Source: an uncultured Acidobacteriota bacterium
Lineage (GTDB): Bacteria; Acidobacteriota; Vicinamibacteria; Vicinamibacterales; 2-12-FULL-66-21
NCBI GenBank assembly: GCA_963804795.1
Contig: CAWDRS010000012.1
Coordinates: forward strand, 65,606-129,605
Direction: 5' to 3'
DNA: 64,000 nucleotides
The notes beneath the pieces were generated by a model. The model was given only the letters and a program-made list of their open reading frames with translations, did no database searches and had not been told where the DNA came from. Shown here piece by piece: positions 36,029 through 58,291 of the stretch (positions are counted from its first letter, which is position 1; each line of letters starts with the position of its first letter). A program made the translations under genes and the position numbers.

Positions 36029-36105
36029 CGGGGCGTGGCTCAGCCTGGTAGAGCACTCGGTTCGGGACCGAGGGGTCGGTGGTTCGAATCCACTCGCCCC
36101 GACCA
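36029..36105 (+). tRNA. tRNA-Pro (anticodon CGG)
   Basis: Acceptor stem CGGGGCG/CGCCCCG, discriminator A and an encoded CCA. D-loop GCTCAGCCTGGTAGAGC. Anticodon stem-loop CTCGG-TTCGGGA-CCGAG. T-arm GGTGGTTCGAATCCACT. Confidence 0.95.
36057..36105 (+). repeat. attL-like 49-bp direct repeat (3' part of tRNA-Pro, from the anticodon stem to CCA)
   Basis: tcggttcgggaccgaggggtcggtggttcgaatccactcgccccgacca is identical to 58243-58291. Confidence 0.85.
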
Positions 36106-36709
36106 CTTTTCCTCGCAGATTCCTCCGGTTTTTGTCGTGGCATCTCGGTTGCTGTCAGGTCGTGTCGGGCAGCGTTGAGCACATTTTGAGCACGTTCGGT
36201 TCGCTGGATGTGCTTCAAGGCTTCGCGAACACGCGCGACCCGACCGGTCGCGGCGCTCCTTCATTCGCAACATCCATCCCGACAGCAGTAGTCCAGTCGC
36301 TTCGTTCATCGGCGTCATCTGCATGTACGCCTTCCCGCATACTCGGCATTCACGGGTCAACGTGAAGCTCGCTGGAGAATCCTCCCAAATCGTCCGTGAC
36401 GGTAAGTAGCTTCCACGCCGCACTTCTCGCACGGCGCATTCTTCGTGGGTGGTTTGGTCATACCCCTCACTGGGATGCCTTCTTGGCGGACCCTTTTGAC
36501 CCTGCTCGTCTCTCGTCCAGCCGGTCCAGCCTTGAACGGCACCCCTGTTTGTTAACGGCTCCAACTCAGCGGGACACCGTACCAATCGCGAAACCCATCT
36601 ATTGAGTCCCAGATATGCGCCTGATTTGAAGCCGACCCACAACATGTCGTGCTTTTCCCTGAACAGTCGTGGTAACGTATCTGACCCGAAAAAAAGGCGA
36701 ACCCCCACC

Positions 36710-38158
36710 ATGACGAACCGCGCGCTCGTCTTCGTGAGCCATGCGAATCCTGAAGACAACGTCTTCAGCCGGTGGCTCTCCCTCAAGCTCGCAGCCGCGG
36801 GCTATCAAGTTTGGTCCGACGTCACAAAGCTACTGGGTGGCGAGGATTTCTGGCGTGATATCGAACCCGCCATACGCGACGGTTCAATCAAGTTTCTGTA
36901 CGTCCTCTCGCGTGCATCGAATACCAAAGTCGGTGCTCTGAAGGAACTCCGAGTCGCGCACGCGACCGCGAAGAAACAGCTACTCAAGGACTTCGTCATC
37001 CCGCTCCGCATCGATGACCTGCCACACGACGAAATCAACATCGAAATCGGACGGCTGAACGTCATTGAATTCGGCGGCAGTTGGGCAGCGGGATTGAAGC
37101 AGCTTCTAAAGAAGCTGGCAGCGGAAGGCGTTCCAAAGAGCGCAGCAAGTGGTCCAGACGTCGTACGCCAGTGGTGGGGTCGCGAGTTCGCCGCCGACAC
37201 CGGGGTCACCGAAGAACCGGAAGTTCACTACTCCAACTGGTTTCCGATTGAGCTACCGAAGCGAATCTATCGGTACTCGTCAATCGGGTTGGTCAACGAA
37301 CACGAAGACCCTGAATGGTCGTTCCCAACCCGATGGCACAACTACCGGCTCGTGACGTTTGCCTCCGCGGCAGACGTCGAACCCGGTCTTGGTTCTCTTA
37401 AGATTCAGCATGCAGAGCAGCGCGAGACGGCGTTGTTCCTGTCTGAAGAGAGTGCTGAGCGCCGTGACCGGCAGAACATTGTCACGGCGATGTTGAACGA
37501 TGCATGGGAGCAGTTCGCACTGTCGCGCGGACTCAAGAGGTATGAGATGGCGAACGGGAAGCCCGCCTTCTACTTCGACCTCGATGTGCTTCCAACCGGT
37601 GACGTGTGGTTCACGTCCGTTGAAGGGAAGAAAACGTTTCGGGGGTTGATGGGGTACAAGACGCGGAAGCCGCGTCCGGGCGTCGACCCGAACGCAGCCC
37701 CGACCCTTCGGCACTGGCATTTTGCGGTGAGCGCACGAACGGCACTGCACCCGTTCCCGATGCTTCAACTCCGTGCCCACGTGCTGTTCTCCGACGACGG
37801 ACGCAACGTGTGGTCTGCGCCAACCGCGAAGGGGCGCGAACGGGTACTGCGAGCGATGCATCGCACCCGTCGTAGCCAGTGCAAGCAGTGGTGGAACGAC
37901 GATTGGCGTGACCGGATTTTGGCGACGATGGCGTGGCTTGTGGGAGACGCGCTAACGCTGGACCTCCCGTTGTCTCTTGGTACCGCGGTCGCCGCGGTCA
38001 ATCCCCGCCCGGTGGAATTCGTCAGTCCGGTGAAATTGCGCGAACCCCGCGCCACAATTGCTGAGCCCACGCCGGACGAAGTCGATGAGGATGAGGATGA
38101 CGACGAGGATGCGATAGAGGACGTCCAGACCTCCGAAGCAGTGAAGGTGGAGAAGTGA
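36710..38158 (+). CDS. TIR-APAZ protein (SPARTA effector subunit)
   Basis: The TIR N-terminus reads ALVFVSHANPEDNVFSRWLSLKLAAAGYQVWSDV...FWRDIEPAIRDGSIKFLYVLS. A conserved Glu sits in GALKELRVA (codon 36944-36946). APAZ-like motifs: NWFPIELP, WHFAVSARTALHPFPML and KQWWNDDWRDRILA. Acidic tail DEVDEDEDDDEDAIED. Confidence 0.9.
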   Translation: MTNRALVFVSHANPEDNVFSRWLSLKLAAAGYQVWSDVTKLLGGEDFWRDIEPAIRDGSIKFLYVLSRASNTKVGALKELRVAHATAKKQLLKDFVIPLRIDDLPHDEINIEIGRLNVIEFGGSWAAGLKQLLKKLAAEGVPKSAASGPDVVRQWWGREFAADTGVTEEPEVHYSNWFPIELPKRIYRYSSIGLVNEHEDPEWSFPTRWHNYRLVTFASAADVEPGLGSLKIQHAEQRETALFLSEESAERRDRQNIVTAMLNDAWEQFALSRGLKRYEMANGKPAFYFDLDVLPTGDVWFTSVEGKKTFRGLMGYKTRKPRPGVDPNAAPTLRHWHFAVSARTALHPFPMLQLRAHVLFSDDGRNVWSAPTAKGRERVLRAMHRTRRSQCKQWWNDDWRDRILATMAWLVGDALTLDLPLSLGTAVAAVNPRPVEFVSPVKLREPRATIAEPTPDEVDEDEDDDEDAIEDVQTSEAVKVEK

Positions 38159-39675
38159 GCCGTCTTCCACTGCTCAAATTGACGGAACCGAGGCTGCGAT
38201 TCGGGTTCGAACAGGCGTTGGAAGACCCACGCGATGGACTGACGCTGTTCGGACCACTTGACGAGAGCAAGGTGTTCGCCGTTCGTCCCGCAGTCGTCGG
38301 TACTCCGGATGGCATCCGCCGTTTCCGGCGTTGGCTGGACGAAATTCAGCGACCCATTGACGACGCTAAGACTTCGCGCCCGCCGTATCCGGGATTCGAA
38401 GCCGCCTTCAACGTGCCGTTCAGCACGAAGCCGGTCTTCGAAATCCCACTGAACGAACGCGAACTGATTGACGCGTGCCACATCGAAGACCAGCATCAAC
38501 GTGTTCATCGCGTCGTGCAGTTGTACTCGGAGCCGATTAGGAATGTGGTCAAGGACGATGAAGCTGAAGCCGATGTATGGTTCGTCATCGTCCCTGAGGA
38601 AGTTTACGTAAGCTGCCGTCCTGAGTCCGTTGTCCCGAAAAGTCTGCGGACTCCCTTGGAAGGCGCCATCAGCGCCCGCATCGCACGAAAGCTGCTGTCA
38701 ACGCCGAGCTTCTTTCCAGACTTGAATGAGGACGCCACACCGTACAGATACCAACCGCATTTCCACAATCAATTGAAGGCACGGTTGCTTGACGTGGGTG
38801 TGCCGACGCAGGTCATTCGGGAAACGACCATCGCGCCGACCGACTTCTTGAACGTTGCCGGACATCCGAAGCGGCGCGTTGGACTGCGTTCTGAGATTGC
38901 GTGGAATCTCTGCACGACGGCGTTTTATAAGGCGGGCGCGCGACCGTGGAAGCTCGCAGATATCCGTCCGGGTGTGTGCTACCTCGGCATCGTGTTCAAG
39001 CAAGACGACGCGAGTCCGAACAAGGGATGGGCCTCCTGCGGGGCGCAGATGTTTCTTGATTCCGGTGACGGGCTCGTGTTCAAGGGCACGGGCGGACCGT
39101 GGTACTCCGCATCAACGCACAGCTTTCACTTGAACGAAGAGGCAGCGCGCGAACTCGTGGAGACAGCCGTGCGCGAGTACGCCATTCGTGTCGGTAAGCC
39201 GCCGGATGAACTCTTCATTCACGGGAAGGCGCGCTTTGACGACACGGAGTGGCGTGGTTTTCGCGCTGGAGCGTCAGACGGCACCCGCGTTGTTGGCGTT
39301 CGAATTCGGTTAGCGGAGGACCTGAGAATCTACCGTCCCGGTCGTCATGCGATTCTTCGGGGACTCGCGCACATCCGGGACGAGCGGACAGGGTTCCTGT
39401 GGGCGAACGGCTTCATCCCACGTCTCCAGACATATCCCGGACGCGAAGTGCCTCGTGGATTGTTAGTAGACGTCTGCCGTGGGCACGCGGACATTCGAAC
39501 CGTGCTGAACGACGTCTACGCGCTGACGAAGTTGAATTACAACGCCTGCGTCTACGGAGATGGGGAACCCGTCACTCTGAGCTTTGCCGACGCGGTCGGA
39601 GAGATTCTGACCGCGGGACCCGTGTCGGGTGCGCCACTGCCATTCAAGCTTGTACATCTGACGCCAACCTGTTAG
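38155..39675 (+). CDS. short prokaryotic Argonaute (MID-PIWI only; SPARTA sensor subunit)
   Basis: The GTG start overlaps the TIR-APAZ stop (GTGA). Motifs: DGLTLFGPL, PYPGFEAAFN, DVWFVIVPEEVYVSCRP, FHNQLKARLLDVGVPTQVIRETT, IAWNLCTTAFYKAGARPWKL, CGAQMFLDSGDGLVFKG and LTKLNYNACVYGDGEPVTLSFADAVGEILTAGP. At 506 aa there is no room for N/PAZ lobes. Confidence 0.9.
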   Translation: MSRLPLLKLTEPRLRFGFEQALEDPRDGLTLFGPLDESKVFAVRPAVVGTPDGIRRFRRWLDEIQRPIDDAKTSRPPYPGFEAAFNVPFSTKPVFEIPLNERELIDACHIEDQHQRVHRVVQLYSEPIRNVVKDDEAEADVWFVIVPEEVYVSCRPESVVPKSLRTPLEGAISARIARKLLSTPSFFPDLNEDATPYRYQPHFHNQLKARLLDVGVPTQVIRETTIAPTDFLNVAGHPKRRVGLRSEIAWNLCTTAFYKAGARPWKLADIRPGVCYLGIVFKQDDASPNKGWASCGAQMFLDSGDGLVFKGTGGPWYSASTHSFHLNEEAARELVETAVREYAIRVGKPPDELFIHGKARFDDTEWRGFRAGASDGTRVVGVRIRLAEDLRIYRPGRHAILRGLAHIRDERTGFLWANGFIPRLQTYPGREVPRGLLVDVCRGHADIRTVLNDVYALTKLNYNACVYGDGEPVTLSFADAVGEILTAGPVSGAPLPFKLVHLTPTC

Positions 39676-39679
39676 GTGT

Positions 39680-40519
39680 ATGGATATTCAGACTCTGCTG
39701 AGCATTCGTGAGACCAAGGCTCGCACCTTGGACGGCGTCCTTCGCCTTAAAGACAGATTCGTGCGGTACGTGGAACTGTTGAAGGGCGTGAGCAACGGCA
39801 GCAATTCTGTCGAGGAAGTCAACAAAGCCCAACACGAACGACTCCTTCGGTTGCGAAACGACGAAAACCGTTTCAACGAATGGGACAACGGGGAACAGAT
39901 GCTGAATCCGGACGTGTTCGGGCTAGCGGAGTCACCGAATGAATACCTGAAGCCGTCCTTGCTTTCCAGTGCTTCAGAGCGAGCGATTGCAAAGTTCGAC
40001 CATCTAGTCGAAGAAGCTCGCGACGAACTCACGGAAGTCGAAGCACAGATTGTTGCCATGACACCGGCAAGCGGGCATCCTGTCCCAAGCGAAGCCCTGT
40101 TTGGCAAGGGGCAGCAGTACGACGCACTCCGTCAGGTGCAAGCGATTCTCAACGGCGCGAAGCGTCAGATTCAAATTGTGGATGGGTACATCGACGCGCG
40201 CGTTTTGGATTTGCTAAAAGACAAAAACGCCGCTGTCAGGGTCGAAATCCTGACCAAAGAACAAAGCGCGAAGCCGTCGGTGACGTTGGCAGCCAATGCT
40301 TTCAATCAGCAATACAAAGGGCTGGAGCTTCGCACTTCAAACGTTTTTCACGACCGCTTTGTCATCATCGATGATGAGGATGTCTACCACTTCGGGGCGT
40401 CGATAAAGGACGCTGGCAAGTCCGGTTTCATGTTCACGAGGATTGAGGGACCTGACATGAAGGAGGCTGTCAGGCGAAGCTGGACCGCGGCGTGGGGCGC
40501 CGCGAAACTGGTAACGTAG
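39680..40519 (+). CDS. uncharacterised protein: coiled-coil N-terminal half plus degenerate PLD-fold-like C-terminal domain (HDR instead of HxK)
   Basis: Starts 4 nt after the pAgo stop. The C-terminus reads RQIQIVDGYIDARVLDLLKD...VRVEILTKE...LELRTSNVFHDRFVIIDDEDVYHFGASIKDAGKSGFMFTRIE (HDR codons 40349-40357). Confidence 0.6.
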   Translation: MDIQTLLSIRETKARTLDGVLRLKDRFVRYVELLKGVSNGSNSVEEVNKAQHERLLRLRNDENRFNEWDNGEQMLNPDVFGLAESPNEYLKPSLLSSASERAIAKFDHLVEEARDELTEVEAQIVAMTPASGHPVPSEALFGKGQQYDALRQVQAILNGAKRQIQIVDGYIDARVLDLLKDKNAAVRVEILTKEQSAKPSVTLAANAFNQQYKGLELRTSNVFHDRFVIIDDEDVYHFGASIKDAGKSGFMFTRIEGPDMKEAVRRSWTAAWGAAKLVT

Positions 40520-40899: not shown

Positions 40900-40949
40900 C
40901 TGACGATTCGACCCGTCCCCGTTCGTTCAGTCTCAGGTGATTGAAGTCC

Positions 40950-42489
40950 ATGCTCACAGGCGAAATCCGCAGCCAAATCGACGCCATCTGGAACGCCTTC
41001 TGGACCGGCGGCATCTCGAACCCGCTGGAAGTCATCGAGCAGATTACCTATCTGCTGTTCCTGAAGCGACTGGACGACCTGCACACGCTGGAAGAGAACA
41101 AGGCCGCACGGCTGAAGAAGCCGATCGAGCGGCGCATCTTCCCCGAAGGCGCGGACCCGAAGGGTCGTCCCTACGAAGACCTTCGGTGGTCGCGGTTCAA
41201 GAACCTCGCGCCAGCCGAGATGTTCACGCGTCGTCAACGACCACGTGTTCCCGTTCCTGCGGACGCTGGGCGGCGACGACTCGACCTACGCCCATCACAT
41301 GAAGGACGCCCGGTTCACGATTCCGACTCCGGCGCTGCTGGCGAAGGTCGTGGACATGCTGGACCACGTCCCGATGGACGACCGGGACACGAAGGGCGAC
41401 CTGTACGAATACATGCTCGGCAAGATTGCGACGGCTGGGCAGAACGGGCAGTTCCGGACGCCCCGGCACATCATCCGCCTGATGGTCGAGATGATGGAGC
41501 CGACCGCCACGGACGTGATTTGCGACCCGGCCTGCGGCACATGCGGGTTCCTGGTGGCAGCGGGTGAACATCTCCGCGAGCGGCATCCCGAGATTCTGCG
41601 AGACGCCACCAGCCGAGAGCATTTCCACCACGGGATGTTCCACGGGTTCGACTTCGACAACACGATGCTCCGCATCGGCAGCATGAACATGCTGCTGCAC
41701 GGCGTCGAGAACCCGGACATCCGCTATCGGGATTCGCTGGCGCAGGACCACGCGGGCGAAGACGAGAAATACACGCTGGTGCTGGCGAACCCGCCGTTCG
41801 CCGGGTCGCTGGACTACGAGACGGTCGCCAAGGACTTGCTGGCGGTCGTCAAGACGAAGAAGACCGAACTGCTGTTTCTGGCGCTGTTCATTCGGCTGCT
41901 GAAGCCCGGTGGACGGGCAGCGGTCATCGTGCCGGACGGCGTGCTGTTCGGGTCGTCCAAGGCCCACAAGGAACTGCGGCGGATTCTGGTTGAGGACCAA
42001 AAGCTGGATGCGGTGATTTCGCTGCCCAGCGGTGTGTTCCGTCCCTACGCGGGTGTCTCGACGGCGATTCTGACGTTCACGAAGACGAACTCGGGCGGCA
42101 CGGACTTCGTGTGGTTCTACGACGTGGATGCGGACGGATGGAGCCTGGACGACAAGCGGACGCCGCTGCTGCCGGACGAGAAGCTGGGTCCGCTTCCGAA
42201 GCAGCCGCTGACGGCAGACGAGCACGAGAAGAACAACCTGCCGGACGTGCTGGCGCGATGGAGCCAACACGCCAAGGCTGAACGGGAACGTCCCCGAACG
42301 GCTCAGAGTTTCTGCGTGCCCAAGGCGGACATCGCTGCCGCTGGCTACGACCTGTCGCTGAACCGCTACAAGGAAGTCGTCCACGAAGAAGTGCAGCACC
42401 GGGCACCGAAGGACATTCTGGCGGACCTTGAGAAGCTGGAAGCGGAGATTCAGCAGGGACTCAAGGAACTTGAAGGGATGCTGAAGTGA
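40950..42489 (+). pseudogene. hsdM: type I restriction-modification methyltransferase subunit HsdM; one frame break (~41229)
   Basis: HsdM_N (IRSQIDAIWNAFWTGGISNPLEVIEQITYLLFLKRLDD), AdoMet motif DPACGTCGFL, catalytic LANPPFAGS. AGGTGA RBS at 40935-40940. Confidence 0.9.
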
Positions 42490-43735
42490 GCTGCGACGTG
42501 GCCGACGAGTTGACGCTCGGCGAATCGACTGCTGTTCGAGATCGGCGACCGTCGGAAGGCACTCGGCCGCCGACGAATCGGCGACTTCGTGCAGGGCGGT
42601 CCATGCATTCGAGAATCGAATCTCGGCGTACGAGTCGGCGACTTCGCTGACACGGTCGTATGTCAGCAAGAGCACGAGCGCAATCGACTGCGCGACGGCA
42701 ATCTCGCGATCGGTGACGTTCTGCTCAGCTCAACGCGGCATCGCTTGGCCAAGTCGCACGGCGACTTCCGCAGACTGAACGATTCGACTACGCGACTTCG
42801 CCAGCATTCGTGACGAAGCTGAGCTCCGACACCCGTCGACGTTCGACATCGTCTTCACTTGCTGGCTTCAATACGCCGGATGCACTGAGCTCGAGCTGCT
42901 CGGCGCAGGCGGCGACGGTCAACGACATCTGACATCGGCATAGTGCAGCGTTCGCAGTTCCTCTCCCGCCCCTTCCCGAACAACGCCGCATCGCGGCCAT
43001 CTTGGACAAAGCGGACGAGTTGCGGGCGAAGCGACGGGCAGCGTTGGAGCAACTGAACGGTCTCACGCAGTCGATGTTCTTGGAGATGTTCGGTGACCCG
43101 GTGACGAATCCGACAGGGTTGGCAACTCGTGCCGCATTGGTCGACGTTGCGTCGAGGCACTCGCTAACGGCGGTCCGTCGAAGCCATCGCAGAATACGTG
43201 CGACGGCGAGAGTGCCGTCTATGAGCACGAGTCACTGCGATTGCGGCGACGTACGCGTCATCTGATGACGATCACTGCACGTCGAAGTACACGCTGACCG
43301 ACATGACGCTCAGACGTGAAGCACGGTGACAGTCGGCGACTGTTCTGTCACGAAGCGCTGCGACATTGGCGTGCAATGCTCGTGCGAGGTCGACACGCGC
43401 GATGCCGTATGCGTGCTGACATCAGACGTTTGCTGCGATCGTCTGACACGCAGATCGAGCCGCGATATCTGCGTCAGCATTGTCGAGACTCAGCCTACGC
43501 AACGCGAGCTTGGCCAGACGTGACAGACCGGCATCGCAGATCGATCGAACTATCATGAAGTCAAAGCTTCGCAGTTCACGATTATCGCTGCCACCGCTGA
43601 CTCTGCAGCGAGAGTTTCGCACGACGGTTGGCAGCCGTGGAGCGACTGAGACGCTGCAGCGAGATCGCCGTCGCAGCAGTTGATGACGCTCTGTTCGCAT
43701 CTCTTCAGCACCAAGCCTTCAGCGGAGCACTCTGA
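42486..43735 (+). pseudogene. hsdS: type I R-M specificity subunit HsdS; multiply disrupted
   Basis: Right length and position (GTGA overlap with hsdM; stop 2 nt before hsdR). The conserved central helix is recognisable ([51 protein letters not shown]). So is the conserved C-terminal region (LPPLTLQREF...LFASLQHQAFSGAL-stop). The variable target-recognition regions contain stops in every frame. Confidence 0.6.
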
Positions 43736-43737
43736 CG

Positions 43738-46700
43738 GTGAGCAACTTCGCCTTCCTGCAGCCGGAGTGGGCGACACTCCACGAATCGGCGCGGAAGGCT
43801 GAACGGCTGGTCTACGCCGACCCACGGGCATCCTGCTTCTACGCCCGTCGCGCCTTGGAACTCGCCGTGTCGTGGCTCTACAAACACGACAGCGGGCTGC
43901 GCTTGCCGTATCAGGACCACCTGAGTGCCCTGATTCACGAACCGACGTTCCGGCAGACCGTGGGCGATGCCGTCTTCAACAAGGCGCGGGTCATCAAAGA
44001 CCTTGGCAATCTCGCCGTCCACAGCCAGCGTCCGGTGCGGCAGTTCGATGCGCTGACGGCGACCAAGGAACTGTTCCACGTCTGCTACTGGCTGGCGCAC
44101 ACCTACTCGACAGGCGCGAAGCCCGCCGCTGGCCTGACGTTCGACCCCGCCAGCGTGCCGAAGCCCGCAGCGGCTCCGACACCCGCAGCCGTCCCGACGC
44201 AGACCGTTGACCAACTGAAACGGCTGGAACAGGAACTCCGCGAACGAGACGAGAAGCTGTCGGCGCTGCTGGCCGACCGGACGACGCTGGATGCCGAACT
44301 GGTGCGGCTCCGTGAGGAAGTGGCGGCGGCGAAGAAGGCCAACACCGCCACGCCCGACGCGCACGACTATTCCGAAGCCGAGACCCGCGATTTCTTCATC
44401 GACCTGCTGCTGAAGGAAGCGGGCTGGGCACTGGACCGGCCACAGGACCGCGAATACGAAGTCACGGGGATGCCCAACGCCGAAGGCAAGGGCTTCGTGG
44501 ACTACGTGCTGTGGGGCGACGACGGGAAGCCGCTGGGTCTGGTGGAAGCCAAGCGCACCAAGCGGGATGCCCGCGTCGGTCAACAGCAAGCGAAGCTGTA
44601 TGCCGACTGTCTAGAGAAGCAGTTCGGCCAGCGTCCCGTCATCTTCTACTCGAACGGCTACGACCACTGGCTGTGGGACGACACGAACTACCCGCCCCGT
44701 CCGGTGCAGGGGTTCTACAAGAAGGCCGAACTCCAACTGCTGGTGCAGCGGCGAACGACCCGCAAGGCGCTGGCGGATGCGCCCATCAACGACGCCATCG
44801 TGGAGCGGTTCTACCAGACCCGCGCCATCCGCCGCATTGCGGAGACGTTCGAGAGGGACCACCAGCGGAAAGCCTTGGTCGTCATGGCGACCGGCGCGGG
44901 CAAGACCCGCACGGTCATTGCCCTGTGCGACTTGCTGATGCGGTGCAACTGGGTCAAGCGGGTGCTGTTCCTGGCCGACCGCATCGCACTGGTCAACCAA
45001 GCCGTCAACGCCTTCAAGAAGCATCTGCCGGATTCGTCGCCGGTCAATCTGGTGACGGACAAGGACGAAGAGGGTCGGGTGTTCGTCTCCACGTATCCGA
45101 CGATGATGGGCCTGATTGACGACGCCACGGACGGGCAGCGTCGGTTCGGCGTCGGGCACTTCGACGTGGTCATCATCGATGAAGCCCACCGGTCGGTGTA
45201 TCAGAAATACGGGGCCATCTTCGACTACTTCGATTCGCTGCTGGTCGGACTGACCGCCACGCCGAAGGACGAAATCGACCGGAACACCTACCGGCTCTTT
45301 GACCTTGAACGGGGTGTCCCGACCGATGCCTACGCGCTTGGACGACGCGGTGAACGACGGCTTTCTGGTCCCGGCCAAAGCCGTGGCCGTGCCGCTCAGG
45401 TTCCCGCGAGAGGGCATCAAGTACGCCGACCTGTCGGAAGAAGAACAGGAACAGTGGGACGCACTGGAATGGGACGACGAAGGCCACGCGCCGGACCACG
45501 TGGAAGCCGCCGCCGTCAACCGCTGGCTGTTCAACGAAGACACGGTGGACAAGGTGCTGGAACACCTGATGACCCGTGGGCAGACCGTGGCGGGTGGGGA
45601 CCGGCTCGGCAAGACCATCGTCTTCGCGAAGAACAACGACCACGCCCTGTTCATCGCGGACCGGTTCAACAAGAACTACCCGCACTACAAGGGCGAGTTC
45701 GCCCGGGTCATCACGTTCAAGACGGAATACGCCCAGAGCCTGATTGACAGCTTCGCCAATCCCGCGAAGTCGCCGCACATCGCCATCTCCGTGGACATGC
45801 TGGACACGGGCATCGACATCCCCGAAGTCGTCAATCTCGTGTTCTTCAAGCTGGTGCGGTCGAAGACGAAGTTCTGGCAGATGGTCGGACGCGGCACCCG
45901 GCTGTGTCCCGACCTGTTCGGTCCCGGCAAGGACAAGGAGTTCTTCTACCTGTTCGACTACTGCCAGAACCTGGAGTTCTTCAGCCAGAAGATGCCGACG
46001 ACGGACGGTGCGCTGGGCGAATCGCTGGGCACACGCCTGTTCAAGACGCGCGTCGGACTGCTTGTGGCGTTGGACCAGCGGCTTGCGGAAGTCGGCATCG
46101 GTCCGTTCGCGACGGCTGGACGGCATGGCGAGAGAGGCCAGTCCCGCCTACGGCGAGACGGAGCACGGCGTGCGTGACGAGACCGCGACGTTGCTGCGGT
46201 CACAGGTCGCCGCGATGAATCTCGACAACTTCATCGTCCGTCCGAAGCGTCGGTTCGTGGAGCGATACGCGCAGGAAGAACCGTGGAAGAAGCTGGGCGA
46301 GGAACAGGTCGGAGAGTTGGTGCAGGAAGTCGCATCGCTGCCGACCGAACTCACCGACGACGACGAAGAGGCCAAGCGGTTCGACTTGCTGATGCTGAAC
46401 CTGCAACTGGCCGTGCTGCACGTCAAGCCGGGGTTCGAGCGTCTGAAGGAGCAGGTGCGGTCCATCGTCGGGATGCTGGAAGACAAGAGCAGCATTCCGA
46501 TGGTGCGGGAGCAGATGCCGCTGATTGACGCCGTGGCCGGTGAGGAATGGTGGCAGGACGTGACCGTGCCGATGCTGGAAACGGCGCGGAAGCGGCTGCG
46601 GTTGCTCATCAAGCTGATTGAGAAGGTCCATCGGAAGCCGGTCTACACCGACTTCGAGGACCAGATGGGTGCCGAGACCGCCGTTCCCGCTGCCCGAGTT

Positions 46701-47186: not shown

Positions 47187-47203
47187 TGTCCAAAAGGACG
47201 CCT

Positions 47204-48017: not shown

Positions 48018-48090
48018 GTAAGACCTCGCCGCGCCCCGTCTAGTCAAATGCGCCTCGGCGGTCCACACTTCTCCGCACCAGGAGGATGGG

Positions 48091-48449: not shown

Positions 48450-48826
48450 GATGGCATGGCCGGCGCGTGACGGTGTATGCGTACGGGCGCCCGACCGACA
48501 TGCGCAAAGGCTTTGATGGGCTCTCGGCCCTCGTGACGCAGGACTTGGCGCGCGACCCGCTCAGCGGCGAGATCTTCATCTTCGTCAGCCGCGATCGCGT
48601 CAGGACCAAAGTGCTCCAGTGGGACGGCACCGGGTTATGCGTGTACGCGAAGCGTCTGGAGCGCGGGCGGTTCGCGTCTCTTTGGCGTGACGACGCCGAC
48701 CCGCCGATCGCGCTGACGATCACCGAGCTCGATCTCTTTCTCGACGGCAGCACGTTGGTGGGGCGTGTCGCGCTATCGCCGCCGGCGATCACGCACTTTT
48801 CGCTTGCGTCGGATCGTGCCAAATAA
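48446..48826 (+). CDS. tnpB: IS66 accessory protein TnpB (orf2), copy 1
   Basis: MRWHGRRVTVYAYGRPTDMRKGFDGLSALVTQDLARDPLSGEIFIFVSRDRVRTKVLQWDGTGLCVYAKRLERGRF. ATGA overlap with tnpA. Confidence 0.85.
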   Translation: MRWHGRRVTVYAYGRPTDMRKGFDGLSALVTQDLARDPLSGEIFIFVSRDRVRTKVLQWDGTGLCVYAKRLERGRFASLWRDDADPPIALTITELDLFLDGSTLVGRVALSPPAITHFSLASDRAK

Positions 48827-48954
48827 TAAAATGAATTCTTGGATTGTGGAGCTTACCTACGAGGGGGATGTCGACACGCTTCGCCAGATTGAGTGTAAGT
48901 CCTCGCCGTGGCCCGTCGGTCCTCGTTCAGTGACGGCTCGCGGCCGGCCGGAGT

Positions 48955-50441: not shown

Positions 50442-50445
50442 TTGA

Positions 50446-50825
50446 TCATGTGGCCCGATCCGACGCAAGCGAAAAGTGCGTCATCGCGGGCGGCGACAGC
50501 GCGATGCGGCCGACGAGCGTGCTGCCATCGAGAAACAGATCCAGCTCGCTGATCGTCAGCGCGATCGGCGGCTCGCCGTCGTCCCGCCAGAGACACGCGA
50601 ATCGTCCCCGCTCGAGCCGCTTCGCATAGACGCAGAGCCCGTCCCATCCCAATGGAGCACCTTGGTCCTGACGCGATCGCGACTGACGAAGATGAAGACC
50701 TCCCCACTCAGCGGATCGCGCGCCAGGTCCTGCGTCACGAGGGCGCACAACCCATCGAAACCCTTGCGCATGTCCGTGGGCCGTCCGTAGGCGTACACCG
50801 TCACCCGCCGGCCGTGCCATCTCAT
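50446..50825 (-). pseudogene. tnpB: IS66 TnpB, copy 2; one frame break ~50640
   Basis: MRWHGRRVTVYAYGRPTDMRKGFDGLCALVTQDLARDPLSGEVFIFVSRDRVRTKVLHWDGTG, then a shift to LCVYAKRLERGRFACLWRDDGEPPIALTISELDLFLDG. Confidence 0.8.
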
Positions 50826-51180
50826 CGCAGCAGCGCGAGCAGCCGGGCCGCGGTCTCCACGTCCAGTCCTTCGACACGCGTGGACGTCGCGCCCACGACG
50901 ACCACGAGGTCCGCGCTCCCGGTGCGTCGCTCCGGAGCGACGATCTGCCACGGGATGAAAGCGCGCACGTGCGGCGACGCACGGGTCCAGCGGTAGAGAC
51001 TCCACGGGGCGACGCCGAGCGCCACCGCCACATCACGCAGCGCCTCGCCCGCCGCTTGCCGCGCACGCCAACACCGGACCGCCTGCCCTCGCACGCCGGC
51101 GAGTAGCGCCGCTGCAGCCCCGTTCGCTGCCCATTCTCCCGTTGCCGCCGCCGCGCGAAACGCCTGACGTCCTGATCCAT
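50822..51180 (-). pseudogene. tnpA: IS66 TnpA, copy 2; one frame break ~51095
   Basis: MDQDVRRFARRRQRENGQRTGLQRRYSPA, then a shift to RGQAVRCWRARQAAGEALRDVAVALGVAPWSLYRWTR...RVEGLDVETAARLLALLR. Confidence 0.7.
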
Positions 51181-51252
51181 CGCATCCTCCTGGTGCGGAG
51201 AACTGTGGACCACTTTGCGTGTTTGACTAGACGGGGTGCGGCGAGGTCTTAC

Positions 51253-51345
51253 AGATCAGTCTCCTCCTCATCGCGAAAATCAACGCCTCATCGCGAAGAA
51301 TCTGCCGCTGACCGCGGAGTCGCGCCGCACTGCGGGTCACCGATG
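51253..51345 (+). pseudogene. tnpC: continuation of copy-1 tnpC after the copy-2 insertion, then lost (deletion junction)
   Basis: QISLLL.RENQRLIAKNLPLTAE matches residues ~19-43 of copy-2 TnpC. Similarity ends near 51345. Confidence 0.5.
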
Positions 51346-51460: not shown

Positions 51461-53807
51461 TTGGCACCCGGCATGACGGTGGGCACCCACCGATTGGAAC
51501 GTCTACTTGGCCGCGGCGGGATGGGGGCCGTCTTTCTTGCGTACGACATGCGGCTTCATCGTCATGTGGCGCTGAAAGTCCTTGACCGCGACGCAGCCGA
51601 TGCCACTTCGAGCCCCGCCTCCTGCGCGAGGCCCGCAATGCCGCGGCGCTGAATCATCCGGCATCTGCACGATCCACGAAGTGGGCGAGGCCGATGGCAC
51701 CGCGTTCATCGCCATGGAATATGTCGAGGGCCGTTCGCTGCGCGATCGCGTCGACGAGGGCGCGCTGCCGATGGGCGAGGCGGTGCGCCTCGGCATTCAG
51801 GCTGCCGACGCCCTGGCCTACGCGCATGAACACGGCGTCGTCCATCGCGACTTCAAAGCCGCCAATGCCATCGTCGGCGAAACGGCCGGCTGAAAGTCGT
51901 CGATTTCGGCCTGGCCCGGAGTGAGGACCCGCAGGTGTCCGAGGCGACGACGATGGCGTCGATGGTGCCGTCCGGCGCAGCGGCGGGTACGCCGTACGCC
52001 ATGGCGCCGGAACAAGTGCGAGGTGAGACCGCCGATGCGCGCACCGACATATGGGCGCTCGGCGTGCTGCTCTACGAGATGGCGACCGGTGCGCGGCCGT
52101 TCGCGGCCAGTCGTGAGCTTTTTCCTCGATTCTCACTAGACCACCGGCGCCGCCCTGTCGACAGTGCCAGTCCATTGACCGCTGTCATCGAGCGGTGTCT
52201 GGAGAAGGATCCCGCGCGCCGGTATCAGCGGGCGGAAGAGGTTCGGGCTGTGCTCGAGGCGATCGCAGCGGGCACGGCGGCGCCATGGAGCACCTGGGGT
52301 TATCATCTGCGTCGCCGACCGGCCATCGCCCCAATCGCGGGCCTTGTGGCGGCCTTCGCTGTGCTGGTGGGATTCAACGTGGGCGGGCTGCGGAACAGGC
52401 TCACCGGTGTCCCGCGCGAACAGGCTCCGATCAAATTGGCCGTATTACCGTTCGAAAACCTCACGGCGATCCCGAGCAGGAGTATTTCAGCGACGGCCTG
52501 ACCGACGAAATGATCACGCAACTGGGCCGGTTGCACCCGCAGCGTCTGAGTGTCATCGCACGGACGTCGTCGATGCGGTACAAGACGACGCGACCTGTCG
52601 ATGGATCAGATCGCACGCGAGCTCGGCGTGGACTATGTCATGGAGGGCAGCGCAAGGCGTGAGGGGAATCGCGTCAGGATCAGCGCGAGTCTCATCCAGG
52701 TACGTGATCAGACGCAGCGATGGAGCGACAGCTTCGAGCGGGAAATGGCCAATGTCCTCACGCTCCAGAGCGATGTTGCCCGCGGTGTCGCGCGCACGCT
52801 GGCCATCACGCTTCTTCCCGCCGAACAGGGTCGTCTTGCCGCGGCTCGTCCCGTCAATCCAGAGGCCTACGAGGCGTATCTGAAGGGACGGTTCCAGTGG
52901 CAGACCATGGCGCCGAAGGCGCTCGATGCGGCGATGGGTTACTTCGAGCTCGCCGTCCAGAAGGATCCGAATTACGCGGCGCCCTACACGGGAATGGGAA
53001 CGGTCTGGGGCCTGCGCTGCAACAACGGCGTGATGCGGTGCCGTGAGGCGGTGGCGAAATGGAAAGAGGTCGTCCGCAAAGCCAAAGAGCTCGAGCCGGA
53101 CCTCCCGCAGGTCCAGGCGCAGACAGCCGCCATTGCCTACTACGTGGATTGGGATTGGCCCGCGGCCGAACGCGAGTTTCGGCGCGCGATCGAGGTCGCC
53201 GCCGCCGATCCCGACGTGCACATGTGGTACGCCGACTATCTTGCTGAACGTCGCCGGTCGCGTCGATGACGCGATCGCGGAAGCCAGGCGGGCTGTGGAA
53301 TTGGACCCGCAGAACTCTTTGTACCAAGTTCGGCTGGCGGTCGCGTTCATGGACGCGCACCGTGAGGACGACGCGATCGCCGTGCTGCAGCAGGTGTTGA
53401 AAGCCGACCCAGGTATGCGGCAGGCGCAGATCAACCTGGTGCAGGCGTTCGCCGCAAAGCGCATGTACAAAGAGGCACTGGCAATGATGGCACAAAACAA
53501 CGCGAACAATCGCGCAGTGGTCGAAGCACAGCAGCGCGCCTACCAGGAAGGGGGATTTCCAAGAGTCGCGCGCATACGTCCAGACGCGTTGGTTCGCCAG
53601 TCGCAGAGCACCTATGTGTCACCTGGAGGCATTGCCGCTGCCTACGCCCGCGCCGGAGAAGCCGCACTGGCGCTGGATTATTTGGAAAAGGCCTACGAGG
53701 AACACGAGACGATGATGGTGTCGCTTAAAGCCGGGAGGGCCTGGGATGCTGTGCGCAGTGAGCCGCGTTTTGAAGCAATACTTCGACGGATGAACCTTTC
53801 GAATTAG
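51461..53807 (+). pseudogene. Ser/Thr protein kinase with TM segment, TolB_N-like region and C-terminal TPR repeats; at least five frame breaks
   Basis: [53 protein letters not shown]...EYFSDGLTDEMITQLG, and TPR-like LDPQNSLYQVRLAVAFMDAHREDDAIAVLQQVLKADP. Start uncertain (TTG 51461 or ATG 51473). Confidence 0.8.
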
Positions 53808-53823
53808 CAACCGAAAAGCGCCA

Positions 53824-54196: not shown

Positions 54197-54796
54197 CTAC
54201 GCCATCGCTTCGATCTGACGGGACTGCTCGGCTCGCGCCACATTCAGCGAACCGAAATCTGGATCGCCATCGGCCGCCTGGCTGAGCACCTGACCTACCA
54301 ACCAGGTGATTCTCTGCTCCTGTGGCGGAAGCGAAGGCTCATGGGGGATCGGCGTGTCGAGGCCGTACTGACGCACGAGTTCCTTCAGGCGTACGATCAC
54401 GCTTCCCGTCTCCCGCCGAGCGGCAGTCAAGAGCCGCACCGCAGCCTCGACCTGCTCCACGGCCGCGACAGACGACGCTCGTGCATCGTTGAAACGCGCG
54501 ATCCCGGACTGGACCTCTCGAACGAGCGCGTCGGCCTCCACTGTCGCCTTCTGAACGGCCTCGGCGCTCGGCAGCTGCTCTTCGAGCGCCCGAATTCGGT
54601 CCTTGAGATCTCTGAGCCGCTCTTCGATTCGAGCTTGCTGGTGCCGTGCCTCGCGCACGCGGTTCTCATCGTAGCGAGCCGGCTCGACGGCCAGCGCACC
54701 CGCCAGAGCTAGCTGGTACTGCGCGCGGGTCTTCTCGAACTCCTCGACCTGCGGAAGATATTTGTGGATCGCGTTTTTGATTTCTCCAGCGGTCAT
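54197..54796 (-). CDS. hypothetical coiled-coil protein
   Basis: Intact 199-aa ORF with a heptad-rich centre (RHQQARIEERLRDLKDRIRALEEQL). ATGA overlap with the upstream gene. Confidence 0.5.
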   Translation of the reverse strand: MTAGEIKNAIHKYLPQVEEFEKTRAQYQLALAGALAVEPARYDENRVREARHQQARIEERLRDLKDRIRALEEQLPSAEAVQKATVEADALVREVQSGIARFNDARASSVAAVEQVEAAVRLLTAARRETGSVIVRLKELVRQYGLDTPIPHEPSLPPQEQRITWLVGQVLSQAADGDPDFGSLNVARAEQSRQIEAMA

Positions 54797-55293
54797 CGCG
54801 TCTTCTCCTTCGAGCGCGCTGCCAGCGCCTTCTTCTCCATTGTGGTAATCGCTGCGGCGTACGGGTCCGGCGGCTTCGTGTAGTAGATGTCGTTGGTCGC
54901 TGGCGGCAGCCCGAGACCGGCGGTCAGCGCGTACTCGCGGAGGCGGTCACGGAACGCCGCCATGGCCCGCAGCGCGTCGGTGACGTCGGGCGCGTCGGGG
55001 ATACCTTGCGCCGCACGCAGCTTCGCGAGTCCGGCCTCGTAGGGGTCCGGGGGCGCGTCGAGTTGCACGCTGCCGTAGCCTTGGAGTGCGCGACCGAGGG
55101 CATCGTGCTGCGCACTCGCGTTGGTGGATGTGCGGAACTCGCTCTGCGAGGCACTGCGCAGCCCTCGCGCGTGATTCTCAGCTTCGATGCGGGCGGCACC
55201 CTCCTCCGGTGACTCGTTCAAGATGTGCGAACAGTAACGGCAGCACCGTGGGCCGCCGCAGCTGTCGTAGTGGTGGTGGGGATCAATCTGCAT
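54793..55293 (-). CDS. hypothetical protein with His/Cys-rich N-terminus
   Basis: A strong RBS (AGGAGAAGGAGA) lies 7 nt upstream of the ATG at 55293. The N-terminus reads MQIDPHHHYDSCGGPRCCRYCSHILNE. Confidence 0.45.
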   Translation of the reverse strand: MQIDPHHHYDSCGGPRCCRYCSHILNESPEEGAARIEAENHARGLRSASQSEFRTSTNASAQHDALGRALQGYGSVQLDAPPDPYEAGLAKLRAAQGIPDAPDVTDALRAMAAFRDRLREYALTAGLGLPPATNDIYYTKPPDPYAAAITTMEKKALAARSKEKTR

Positions 55294-55360
55294 CGGATAT
55301 CTCCTTCTCCTGACGTTTGCTGAATGACGGTCGATCCAGACATGAGGAACCTCTTTCGAG

Positions 55361-56748
55361 TTACCAGGCAGCAAACTCCGCCTCGGGCACCTGCGCGGCG
55401 GCGACCAGCGCGCCGGCGGCGGCGTTCGCCACGTCATCGAGTTGGCGCGGTGCGTGGTCAATGCTGTCCTTGCCGCCGCGCGCGCATCGCCGCTCCAGCC
55501 CGGCGAGTTGCTTCAGCAGGCGGGCATGATCCAGCAGCTCGCACGTGCCCGACATGATCAACGGCAAACTGTCTTGATAAATCTGCGACTTCGTGCGCTC
55601 ACTCGGCTCCACCGTGATGCCCACCTTCTGAAACGCTTCAGTGGGCCACGAGCCCGCATACCGGTCGCTCGTGGCGGTGGTGATCCGGAAAGCCTTGAGC
55701 ACCGCCGCGAACTCCCGGACCACCGCCTCAGGGGAAAACGGCGGCCGCACTTCGCGGATCACGTCGAGCACCGCCCGCCCGTCGTGGTGGTGCGCGATGG
55801 CCAACGTCATCGAGTCGGAACCTGTGCCGCCGCTGGGATCGAGGAAGGCGTAGTATTGTACACGGAGGCATACGACTGCTCGAACCGCCCCGGCATGCGC
55901 ACGGCGTTGAGCACGTCAAGGGGGAGGAAGGCCTCCACATCGGTTCGAAATTCGCCGGCAAACTCCGCCGCCGCCGCCATGGGATCGTCCTCGTACGCCT
56001 TCTCGATCACACGGTGATCAATGCACGGGTTCATCACCCACGTCGGCGCATTCACCACGAGCACATCGGCCGATTCGTTGCGCCCGAAATGGGTGTCATA
56101 CGTCCTCCACACTTCGGCGCGTCTGGCGTAGACGCTCGTCAAGGCAATCAGCATCGCGCTGGGTACGGACGCCATCGAGGCTCGCAATGCGATCAGCGCT
56201 TCACGATCTGGGTTGGCCGAGTCGTCATCGGCCCAGAAGGCGACTTCATCGCAGGCCGCGCCGATGCAGGTGTACCCACGGAGTGATCGAAACGAACAGG
56301 TGTGAATTTCAATGCAGAGACCGTTCGTCAGCCAGATCCCCTCGACCGTCTCGTGGTCCACAAGTGCATTGAGCGATGGATGCGATCTGAAGAGGCCGCT
56401 GACGTACTTCTTAACGACGCGCGCCTGTCGCCGGTCGCTCGCGATGCACATAAAGACGCCCGTTTCGCCGGGGCGAGCGTGTACGAGCGACAGGTGGTCG
56501 CGAACACCGCGAGCAAGGCCGCGATGATGGATTTGCCAGACCGGCGCCCGAGGAGCAACCACAGTTCACGCACAGGACCCGAAGGGAACGTGGAGCGTTG
56601 GGTCAGCGGTGCGAAGTACACGATGGTCCTCATCACTCAGATCGAGGGCATGCGCGGCTTTGAGCACGCACCGCCACGTCGCCCAAGTGTCGGCCCCGAA
56701 CGTCGAGCCGAGAACACGATTCATGAGCGTATGGCTGCGCACGGGCAC
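55361..56748 (-). pseudogene. phage terminase large subunit; at least three frame breaks; N-terminus possibly truncated
   Basis: Walker A LLLGRRSGKSIIAALLAVF, Walker B-like CDEVAFWADDDS, and a nuclease half LAIAHHHDGRAVLDVIREVRPPFSPEAVV...SDRYAGSWPTEAFQKVGI. Confidence 0.75.
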
Positions 56749-57003
56749 ACCGCTGGTCAGCAGGTGCTCGTCGTAAACCTGCCGAAGATGGGCCGGGTGA
56801 TGCTCTCAGGAGATCTGTATCACTTCCGGGAAGAACGGGAACAGCGGGTCTTGCCACATAGCCTCGAGCACGATCGGGAGAAGTCACGCCAGTCGCGCGT
56901 CCGGCTCGAGGCGTGGGCGACGCAGAACAACGTGCCCATCTGGATCGAGCACGACACACGCTTGTATGCGACGCTGAAGAAGGCTCCGGCCTATCTCGAA
57001 TAG
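56735..57003 (+). pseudogene. 3' fragment of an MBL-fold hydrolase (N-acyl-homoserine-lactonase-like)
   Basis: HGHTAGQQVLVVNLPKMGRVMLSGDLYHF...NVPIWIEHDTRLYATLKKAPAYLE-stop. There is no N-terminal HxHxDH part. It abuts the terminase 5' end. Confidence 0.5.
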
Positions 57004-57150: not shown

Positions 57151-57381
57151 ATGCGAACCGCCGGTGTCCGTGAAGCCCGTCAGAACCTCACCGATCTACT
57201 CGAGGACGTGAAGAAGGGACGCGAGGTCGTAATCACCGATCGCGGCCGTCCGGTCGCTCGCCTGGCGCCCGTCGCACGTCGCCGTCCCTTCCCCGATCTC
57301 GCGCGTGTACGCGCCGCATTCCGCGGACCCGATCCCACACTGTCACAGGCCGTCCTCGAAGAACGGGAAGATCGCCTGTGA
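57151..57381 (+). CDS. Phd/YefM-family antitoxin
   Basis: MRTAGVREARQNLTDLLEDVKKGREVVITDRGRPVARLAPV. The stop overlaps the toxin start. Confidence 0.8.
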   Translation: MRTAGVREARQNLTDLLEDVKKGREVVITDRGRPVARLAPVARRRPFPDLARVRAAFRGPDPTLSQAVLEEREDRL

Positions 57382-57848
57382 GCCCGTCCGATACCGCCGA
57401 CGCCGCAGCCGAACGCTGGGCAGAGCCGGTCTATCTGGACGCGAGCGCCCTGGTGAAGTTGTTCGTGCCAGAAACTGAAAGCGACGAGTTGAATAAGGCG
57501 CTCGCCGGCATGACCGACGTAATCGTCTCCGACCTCGCCCTGACCGAGATGGCGTCTGCCCTTGGCCGCCGCACGCGCGAACACCTCCTCACTCGCAAGG
57601 AAGCGCAGCGCCTGTATCGTGAAGCGTCGAAGTTGCACATGTCCTCACTCAGTGCCGAGCTGACGCCGCCGATCCACCGCCGCGCCGAGAGGCTGATGCT
57701 CTCGCTGGCGATCCCGCTGCGCGCGCTCGATGCCCTTCATCTGGCCACGGCGCTCGACGCCGAAGCGGCGACGGTCGTCACCTTCGATTCCCGTCTGCGT
57801 GATGCGGCCCTCTCTCAAGGATTGTTCGTGGCGCCTCAGGGCGTCTGA
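57378..57848 (+). CDS. vapC: PIN-domain toxin (VapC family)
   Basis: VYLDASALVKLFVPE...LALTEMASAL...LRALDALHLATAL...VVTFDSRLRDAA (the four acidic PIN positions are present). Confidence 0.8.
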   Translation: MSPSDTADAAAERWAEPVYLDASALVKLFVPETESDELNKALAGMTDVIVSDLALTEMASALGRRTREHLLTRKEAQRLYREASKLHMSSLSAELTPPIHRRAERLMLSLAIPLRALDALHLATALDAEAATVVTFDSRLRDAALSQGLFVAPQGV

Positions 57849-58242
57849 CATGGTGCGGAAGACGATTCGCTGACACGAATCCAACCGCTGGCTTCTCGAA
57901 CGAACGGCCCTTCACCGACGCCCAACACGATCGCTTGAACCGAGCCGCGTTCGCCCAGTCCCGTGCTCGTCGATGATTGCTTCGACTGTCTTGATCATCA
58001 GATGCCTCGTCCGGCTAGCCGACCGCCTCCTCTTCAGGGTCGCATCGTCTGCGTCCACCGTCAGGGGCCCGCCGACTAGGCCGGAGGACAGAGATGCCGG
58101 AGCTCTCCCGAACCTGCCGGGCACTGACGAAATCGGCCGGCATGGTCGGCGAAGGTCGGATCTGGCCGCCGCCGAATCACTACCCCGATGCTACCCGCGT
58201 TTGAAAAACCAAGGAATCCTTCGGAAATCTGCAGGTAGACGT

Positions 58243-58291
58243 TCGGTTCGGGACCGAGGGGTCGGTGGTTCGAATCCACTCGCCCCGACCA
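58243..58291 (+). repeat. attR-like 49-bp direct repeat (orphan 3' end of tRNA-Pro)
   Basis: Identical to 36057-36105. The preceding sequence has no tRNA 5' half. Confidence 0.85.

Follow-up and report, generated by a model that had tools for sequence, protein, structure and literature searches.

What is the 22 kb of DNA that separates an intact tRNA-Pro(CGG) gene from a second copy of its 3' half in an uncultured acidobacterium: one integrated element that has lost its integrase, or the remains of several? The window analysed here is a stretch of 64,000 nucleotides (contig CAWDRS010000012.1 of assembly GCA_963804795.1, positions 65,606 to 129,605), and coordinates given without a contig label refer to it. 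A first reading of the letters alone (the original prediction) had described a single island, flanked by perfect 49-bp repeats, devoid of an integrase and now immobilised. Our analysis indicates that 36106-58242, probably extended to 59043, is probably the variable filling of an integration hot spot at tRNA-Pro(CGG). With moderate confidence, this filling is explained as a composite of at least two successive integrations followed by decay, leaving a relic that resembles a cis-mobilisable element (CIME). A composite is favoured over a single element because the arms of the attachment sites (att) at its two ends are mismatched, the G+C content at third codon positions (GC3) forms a mosaic, and the interior carries a deletion.

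The tRNA-Pro(CGG) gene (36029-36105, + strand) is intact (ARAGORN; Rfam 63.4 bits) and is the sole tRNA gene that ARAGORN reports in the window. Its 3' 49 bp (36057-36105), which begin at the second base of the anticodon stem, extend to the CCA end and form the proximal att core copy (attL core), recur on the same strand at 58243-58291 with 49 of 49 positions identical. The repeat is exactly 49 bp long, given that the bordering bases differ (C/T before, C/A after). A repeat search returned this pair as the only long direct repeat within 34000-60500, with two copies only in the window, and an exact 49-mer match cannot be due to chance. The distal copy is best described as a displaced 3' fragment of tRNA-Pro; the idea that it is a decayed full gene was rejected, given that it scores 19.6 bits against a gathering score of 29 for the Rfam tRNA model. 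Of the 28 nt that precede the distal copy, 4 agree with the tRNA 5' half (read by eye), and the acceptor strand is absent. The prediction of an exact 49-bp repeat whose second copy lacks the tRNA 5' half is thus borne out.

Sequences downstream of the two copies also differ. A terminator scan identified an intrinsic-terminator-like hairpin after the distal copy (58305-58335, + strand; GGGCCCGG-TTTT-CCGGGCC followed by TTCTT), and the fold of 58292-58345 reaches -27.6 kcal/mol (z = -5.7), whereas the trailer of the intact tRNA-Pro has no terminator hairpin (fold z = -0.1). A strong hairpin after the distal copy and none after the intact gene is what displacement of the native end to the distal position would predict. 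Similar hairpins stand 3' of the tRNA-Pro gene or of its distal copy in L005, L085 and L002 (labels of this form denote the genomes and contigs used for comparison). The SurE protein encoded in the flank, used as a search query, assigns the window to the order Vicinamibacterales of the Acidobacteriota. The order SurE, then tRNA-Pro(CGG), is kept in about 30 related species-level genomes (L001-L034).

The same tRNA block is found in phage attachment sites (attPs). In the viral contig L081, the gene for a 471-aa tyrosine integrase (PF00589) reads straight into the tRNA-Pro block, and terminase and prohead protease genes follow. The family of this integrase has 36 members. In L091/L093, L095 and L096, which are long contigs representing phage genomes, an HTH_17 (excisionase-type) gene is followed by the integrase gene (int) and then, 60-85 bp after int, by the attP. 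The coordinates of these modules are 8201-9869 in L081, 3772-5709 in L091, 3618-5650 in L095 and 3734-5649 in L096. The attPs of L081, L091, L095 and L096, four sites of one integrase family, all hold the tRNA-Pro(CGG) block from the anticodon stem to the CCA end, and their left boundary agrees with that in the window exactly in L091 and L096, to within 1 base in L081 and to within 3 bases in L095. The presence of this block, with its left boundary in the same place, in phage attPs beside tyrosine integrases upholds the reading of the repeat as an att signature of integration at an anticodon-loop tRNA site. The T-stem variant of the block differs from phage to phage, and the block of L096 agrees in full with the tRNA of the L003 lineage. 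Such phage-specific variants explain why each bacterial genome has its own variant in both copies.

A tandem of 11-bp period, specific to the phage, is shared by the two arms in each of these four attPs; relative to the block, it lies at -78 to -55 on one arm and +81 to +105 on the other. In the lambda paradigm, the attP core is flanked by arm-type Int-binding sites, and by this analogy the tandems may be lambda-type arm-type sites. The phage attPs resemble that of lambda in having a core (here the tRNA block) with the same tandem on both arms at fixed distances, beside HTH_17 and int genes. They differ from it in that the motifs vary between elements and, in the window, also between the two arms.

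The window's tandems share the 11-bp period and lie at comparable distances from the core copies, as sites predicted from sequence. On the tRNA side, the P' arm ('X type'; 36106-36200, + strand) has a tandem TTGAGCACATT/TTGAGCACGTT at 36175-36193 (+70 to +88), which matches the P' tandems of the phage attPs in position and period. This arm shares 79% identity over 143 bp with L008 10767-10909, where the same TTGAGCAC tandem is found. At the distal end, the P arm ('Y type'; 58123-58242, + strand) has a tandem CTACCCCGATG/CTACCCGCGTT from 58180 (-62 to -41). Alignments of the distal arm together with its core copy show identities of 83% with L090 (169 bp), 80% with L085 (120 bp) and 92% with L003 (79 bp), and the arm forms a group of GCTACCC-type arms with L085, L090, L003 and L024, although the tandem is lost from the P arms of L003 and L024. 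L085, L089 and L082 also carry the GCTACCC motif in the arm on the tRNA side, and the islet of L085 has GCTACCC tandems on both arms. In the window, two copies of TTGAGCAC on one arm face a GCTACCC-type tandem on the other, with no 9-mer common to both. The expectation of one element with matching attL and attR is not upheld, given that the arm tandems match in four of four phage attPs.

No known RNA family was found in the arms (Rfam), and the distal arm matched no integrase profile. Extra decayed att copies within the island, and an internal GCTACCC tandem that could mark an old left end, were sought and none was found. The octamer TTGAGCAC occurs 7 times in the window against 1.7 expected (0/100 shuffles reach 7); copies lie at 55695, 55907 and 56660 (+ strand) in the region of terminase debris, and also at 14939 and 48372 (- strand).

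The absence of a tyrosine or serine recombinase, as originally claimed, is supported by four methods, which include profile and tblastn searches with phage integrases. In Pfam, there was no match to PF00589, resolvase or recombinase among the candidate ORFs (open reading frames), and no recombinase family at E <= 0.1 among 106 stop-free pieces of at least 45 aa, drawn from every frame of the stretches of 36106-59050 that were unassigned to genes. Signature motifs of tyrosine and serine recombinases were absent from the six frames of the whole window, and the L081 integrase had no tblastn match in it. A profile of the 36-member integrase family, run unfiltered (--max) against six-frame pieces of at least 20 aa from the whole window, also gave no match (best E = 3). 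Recombinase motif matches in L002 and L029 were found to be spurious, and the idea that the conserved P arm is what is left of the 3' end of an integrase gene was rejected (pairwise p of about 0.003 in 1/15 frames; family profile null).

Given that int lies 60-85 bp upstream of the core in attP, it adjoins the distal copy after integration, not the tRNA. The edge beside the tRNA had been named as one of two places where the integrase may have been lost; this needs revision, as the int of the only integrase family found to use the block would land at the distal copy instead. The stretch next to the tRNA (36106-36709) had been described as holding only broken ORFs, and indeed no Pfam family was matched there in any frame, but its first 85-95 bp are a conserved P' arm and not gene debris. 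The remainder, upstream of the SPARTA operon (36201-36710), is non-coding, with no protein-like ORF and no Pfam family in any frame at E <= 0.1; a 248-aa minus-strand ORF within it has a flat GC profile across the three codon positions, and neither Pfam nor PHROG gave it a match. A short broken frame at 36200-36450 (- strand) contains two CxxC pairs (MTKPPTKNAPCEKCG... and ...CRVCGKAY). The six-frame scan returned a very weak zinc-finger Pfam match (E = 0.04), whose assignment to this CxxC frame is unconfirmed.

Because the island has no recombinase of its own, excision would need a compatible integrase supplied in trans. The description of the island as immobilised is too strong in this respect, as core copies and putative arm-type sites survive and a trans-supplied integrase might move it; the mismatched arms nevertheless make even such excision doubtful. 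Neither relaxase nor type IV secretion families were returned in Pfam, PADLOC and PHROG scans of the island. A coherent set of phage structural, replication and lysis genes, as in a prophage, is also lacking: one terminase large-subunit fragment was seen, with no other PHROG structural matches.

The closest relatives, L001 (95% SurE identity) and L002, are the only ones that also share the right flank (xdhC, mobA). Their similarity to the window ends at the tRNA and restarts at 59044-59048. The filling between tRNA-Pro and xdhC is 22.9 kb in the window, 6.0 kb in L001 and 1.9 kb in L002, and the three fillings are mutually unrelated. Given that L001 and L002 keep both flanks with unrelated filling, the 22 kb is accessory and lineage-specific, in agreement with what had been proposed for this interval. 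The tRNA 3' half has a second copy 1.6-5.8 kb downstream of the tRNA in L001, L003, L005 and L024, and one also in the metagenome contigs L082, L085 and L089, with a third, decayed core copy in L001. The tRNA-Pro(CGG) site is an integration hot spot in Vicinamibacterales (Acidobacteriota) chromosomes. L001 has three att copies in 6 kb, the intact tRNA included; its two P-arm copies (L001 11029-11088 and 16561-16653) each consist of a tandem CTTATGCT motif followed by the core, and the copy nearer the tRNA is decayed. A PIN fragment just inside the distal copy of L001 is 71% identical to the PIN of L002.

Variable DNA may continue to the right of the distal copy. The 752 bp between this copy and xdhC (58292-59043) correspond to a spacing of 184 bp in L001, and 58336-59043 has neither a counterpart in L001 or L002 nor a coding signal or Pfam match. 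Within it, 58383-58418 weakly resembles the P' arm of L085 (19/21 match; score 20, where the null is 12.5 +/- 1.3), and beyond the distal copy a lone GAATCGCTACCC at +206 is a similarly weak sign. This stretch is possibly a relic of a further element, a weak suggestion that is not relied on here.

Several relatives contain complete islets at this site. The islet of L003 encodes a Phd-PIN pair, and that of L024 a DUF899 protein and an antitoxin-like ORF. The islet of L085 (1-4463, Ga0055471_10000770) is complete, with 4.2 kb between tRNA-Pro and the displaced fragment; it encodes a 1102-aa PLD-helicase-DUF3427 protein and a RelE-like toxin-antitoxin (TA) pair, has no integrase, and is the cleanest CIME-like candidate seen. 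Its antitoxin is, by eye only, very similar to that of the L024 islet. Two TA pairs lie in the L002 spacer. In the window, a type II TA pair (57151-57848, + strand) consists of Phd/YefM (57151-57381; PhdYeFM_antitox E = 1.1e-10) and PIN (57378-57848; E = 9.4e-16), and TA pairs are located just inside the distal copy in L003 and L085 as well. The Phd of the window is 36% identical to the Pfam-confirmed Phd of L003. Orthology of the TA pairs of the window, L003 and L002 was rejected, as identities of 33-36% indicate the same family and not orthologous genes. Exact-protein look-ups of SurE, pAgo and PIN found no other copies on record.

At the left end, the island carries a SPARTA operon, comprising TIR-APAZ and a class I short pAgo, both full length. 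TIR-APAZ (36711-38158, + strand) matches Pfam TIR_2 (E = 4.9e-18) and PADLOC Aga_TIR-PNTD1-PNTD2 (E = 9.3e-127, profile positions 2-441 of 443) and has a GC3 of 0.64. The pAgo gene (38155-39675, + strand; PADLOC pAgo_I E = 2.9e-186, profile positions 4-490 of 493; GC3 0.67) has a start that overlaps the TIR-APAZ stop by 4 bp. A gene for a PLD-like nuclease follows (39680-40519, + strand; GC3 0.65), which is a candidate PDC-S05 system (PADLOC E = 2.4e-38) with a match to Pfam PLDc_2 that lies below the curated cutoff (E = 5e-5). These SPARTA and PLD genes, with a GC3 of 0.64-0.67, stand apart from 34 flank genes at 0.82 +/- 0.05, and given this difference from the host mean the SPARTA-PLD block is probably a recent import from a donor of lower GC. 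Values of 0.84-0.86 were obtained for hsdM and the IS66 transposase gene. The impression that third positions are AT-richer in the left half holds for 36.7-40.5 kb only. Read-through from the tRNA promoter into the SPARTA block is possible, given that tRNA-Pro lies 600 bp upstream on the same strand with no terminator between.

The deletion lies at a pair of IS66 copies. The older copy begins at 48016-48889 (+ strand; IS coordinates 1-872), with its left inverted repeat (IRL) and TnpB_IS66 (Orf2; E = 1.8e-28), and is 81% identical to the other copy. A complete IS66-family element is inserted in it in inverse orientation (48894-51254, - strand), with terminal repeats TGTAAG... at both ends. The inserted copy has the inverted repeats, tnpB (TnpB_IS66) and DDE tnpC of the family (DDE_Tnp_IS66 E = 4e-69 at 48955-49986, - strand), its tnpA has no Pfam model match, and its transposase appears frame-broken. 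The older copy resumes at 51252-51325 (+ strand; IS coordinates 868-943) for 74 bp and then stops, with about 1.5 kb missing by blastn against the complete copy. Its end at about 51.33 kb stands directly beside a kinase gene that lacks its 5' end. The IS66-associated deletion that had been proposed is thus real, the older copy being cut at about IS coordinate 943, and the loss of an integrase there is plausible only.

According to the composite reading, elements with a tyrosine integrase and the tRNA block in their attP would recombine in or near the anticodon loop. The incoming element would supply a new tRNA 3' end, and the old 3' end would be displaced to the far side as the 49-bp fragment. 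At least two such events would have taken place, with each newcomer pushing older material rightward. The youngest event would have left the P' arm with the TTGAGCAC tandem beside the tRNA, and an older event the P arm with the GCTACCC-type tandem and the TA pair beside the distal fragment. The junction between elements, together with any xis and int genes, would then have disappeared, for which the IS66-linked deletion at about 51.33 kb is a plausible occasion, and the rest would have decayed. The order and number of events, as well as the site of integrase loss, belong to this reconstruction.

Several points weigh against the composite reading. The rule that both arms bear the same motif derives from four phages of one integrase family, and an element could conceivably have arms that differ; the arm-type sites themselves are predicted from sequence pattern only. 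No integrase-bearing relative with either arm type of the window was found, and window-type arms are absent from IMG/VR. The empty tRNA-Pro site that had been proposed as a check, in which 36105 would be joined directly to 58292, gave 0 matches in an exact search of the metagenome collection for the tRNA joined to ATCAAC, and the 752 bp to the right of the distal copy are likewise absent from L001 and L002. The frameshifts that mark decay could be partly assembly errors, although they are probably genuine given that the flanks are clean (41 kb, 34 long ORFs). Finally, the 49/49 repeat would also fit a single recent event. It does not discriminate between the models, because the decay of the genes is, by rough arithmetic, compatible with 0 changes in 49 bp.

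That a single 22-kb element integrated once, with the 49-bp copies as its own attL and attR, and that its integrase was later deleted at the IS66 site or at the edge so that the element is now fixed, appears unlikely. A perfect repeat with two copies only in the window would follow from it directly, and it is compatible with the absence of the 22 kb from L001 and L002, the real IS66-associated deletion and the lack of a detectable recombinase. It does not account for arm tandems that differ in the window and match in four phage attPs and in the L085 islet, nor for a left arm that is akin to that of L008 and a right arm that belongs with those of L085, L090, L003 and L024. The GC3 mosaic also argues against it, as does the finding that the stretch adjacent to the tRNA is a conserved arm in place of integrase debris. 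At the opposite extreme, the distal 49 bp might owe nothing to site-specific integration and be left over from a tandem tRNA duplication, or serve to anchor cassette exchange by homologous recombination. The locus is variable in all relatives, and the highly conserved tRNA block could anchor homology. This explanation is nonetheless very improbable, given that the left identity boundary is the same to the base in five lineages and coincides with that of the integrase-adjacent phage attPs (1 base off in L081, 3 in L095), that no tRNA 5' half or acceptor strand lies upstream of the distal copy, and that conserved non-tRNA arms with tandem motifs flank the copies.

Another explanation is that islets with GCTACCC arms, including at least the right part of the island, are integrase-less, cis-mobilisable cassettes of TA and defence genes, still moved in trans by an integrase that a phage or another element encodes at a different place in the genome. 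No integrase is present in any of the four complete islets with arms, those of the window, of L085 (4.2 kb), of L003/L089 (1.6 kb) and of L024/L082 (1.7 kb), and the P arm is about 80-93% conserved (tRNA core included in the alignments) between lineages whose tRNAs differ in their T-stem variants. L085 has kept the tandem on both arms, and the core copies of the window, L024 and L089 are perfect or close to it. On the other side, no cognate integrase was found and the arms are absent from IMG/VR, the arms of the window are mismatched, the P arms of L003 and L024 are without the tandem, the distal copies of L085/L083 and L087/L088 differ by point changes as those of drifting relics would, and the cargo of the window is heavily decayed. 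We consider this explanation improbable. Correspondingly doubtful is the existence of a Vicinamibacterales cassette family at tRNA-Pro(CGG), characterised by GCTACCC arms and a TA module, that would shuttle defence genes between lineages via the integrases of temperate phages. It is as unlikely, as part of the same proposal, that the right end of the island in the window is such a cassette, now fused to a younger element. Successive integrations followed by decay thus remain our preferred account of the island.

The predicted contents of the island, namely defence genes, IS66 elements, phage debris and a TA pair, were confirmed in the form of SPARTA, the PDC-S05 candidate, a type I restriction-modification (R-M) locus, IS66, terminase fragments and Phd/PIN. 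As judged from their reading frames, the SPARTA operon, the PLD-like gene and Phd/PIN are survivors, and the type I R-M, kinase and terminase genes are wrecks. An intact type I R-M system (hsdM, hsdS, hsdR) is not present. The hsdM gene (40941-42489, + strand) is frame-broken, with HsdM_N (profile positions 1-81 of 135) in 40941-41249 and an N6_Mtase ORF (41245-42489; E = 4.6e-60) in a different frame. What remains of hsdS (42490-43737, + strand) is a 34-aa match to the Methylase_S C-terminus in 42933-43262, with no plus-strand ORF piece exceeding 110 aa. The hsdR gene (43738-47250, + strand) lies in at least three pieces in two frames, with DUF4145, HSDR_N and ResIII at 43738-45747, Helicase_C in the other frame at 45299-46177, and EcoEI_R_C at 46903-47250. 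A PDB sequence search on the R-M fragments was uninformative.

Beyond the IS66 pair, the kinase gene is a 5'-truncated and frameshifted Ser/Thr kinase-TPR gene (51576-53807, + strand), with Pkinase profile positions 57-131 in 51576-51890, positions 156-253 in another frame in 51935-52501, and TPR at 53043-53807. Its orthology with the island kinases of L001 and L005 was rejected, as amino acid identities of 39-46% are at the level of paralogs. Two ORFs without known function follow (54197-55461, - strand; 199 aa, with a weak coiled-coil-type signal, and 222 aa), which had no significant Pfam or PHROG match and weak SMC-like PADLOC matches only. The terminase large-subunit debris (55361-56562, - strand) includes a 251-aa ORF at 55807-56562 (PHROG E = 8.6e-8) and a 149-aa ORF at 55361-55810, which has no family match and is assigned to terminase by position only. 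No viral relatives of the terminase fragment were found. A 233-aa ORF (56302-57003, + strand) overlaps the terminase fragment on the opposite strand and has no Pfam, PADLOC or PHROG match; its C-terminal part looked by eye like the end of a metallo-beta-lactamase-fold hydrolase, which family scans did not confirm.

The flanks contain housekeeping genes, including FtsH, Rho, DnaJ and ferrochelatase (among the 25 of 57 families listed). Two indels were observed in the left flank: 28859-31294 is missing from L001 and present in L003, L005 and L006, and 32273-35196 is present only in the window and L001. In L001, which is a metagenome-assembled genome, the homologues of xdhC and mobA (L001 16837-18545) are each found as two tblastn pieces with a break. 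The breaks may stem from a frameshift in the assembly, and frameshifts should be verified in genomes assembled in this way.

Among known systems, the island is closest to the tDNA islands collected by Islander, in which the class with an 'anticodon-centred attP site A' is the commonest, with 2083 of 3919 islands (Hudson, Lau & Williams 2015, PMC4383910). The likeness to these islands lies in a regenerated tRNA gene and a displaced 3' fragment in direct orientation, in a block that starts at the anticodon stem (sublocation classes of Williams 2002), and in an island of foreign composition that is absent from relatives. Accordingly, the features used by Islander that are found here are the tRNA with its cognate same-strand fragment, the absence from relatives and an att block used by a known integrase system. 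Islander requires an internal PF00589 integrase, whereas the island in the window is without one, and its element-side arms are mismatched, so that the ends probably stem from different events. A route of 'decay and accretion' to CIMEs has been described for the ICESt1-related elements of Streptococcus thermophilus (Pavlovic et al. 2004, summarised in PMC5704250). The window resembles CIMEs (PMC5704250) in that a core copy stands at each end, an integrase is lacking and more than one event is suggested. It differs from them in that no conjugation or mobilisation genes or remnants were seen, the integrases linked to the block are from phages only, and the arms are mismatched, so that one integrase may not act on both ends.

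SPARTA has been characterised biochemically as having a guide-dependent NADase activity that causes abortive infection (Koopal et al. 2022, PMC9097488). The operon in the window agrees with the system described there in the adjacency of full-length TIR-APAZ and short pAgo genes, and as read from these genes the SPARTA system, which defends against plasmids, is intact. The difference is that here it is the cargo of an island in an uncultured acidobacterium, with NADase activity and guide use as predicted properties, and is not part of the integration machinery.

No current concept is challenged by these findings, and the locus is an ordinary decayed genomic island of a well-known kind. The island indicates, however, that repeat-flanked islands without an integrase can be composites with unrelated ends, which matters for island callers that pair a tRNA gene with the nearest fragment. 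For one phage integrase family, the comparison outlines an att architecture in which a tRNA-Pro block is combined with putative arm-type sites in 11-bp-period tandems. In addition, the island shows how defence genes lodge in a poorly studied, uncultured soil phylum, with SPARTA, a PLD-like candidate system and a dead type I R-M locus gathered at a tRNA hot spot that temperate phages have hit repeatedly.

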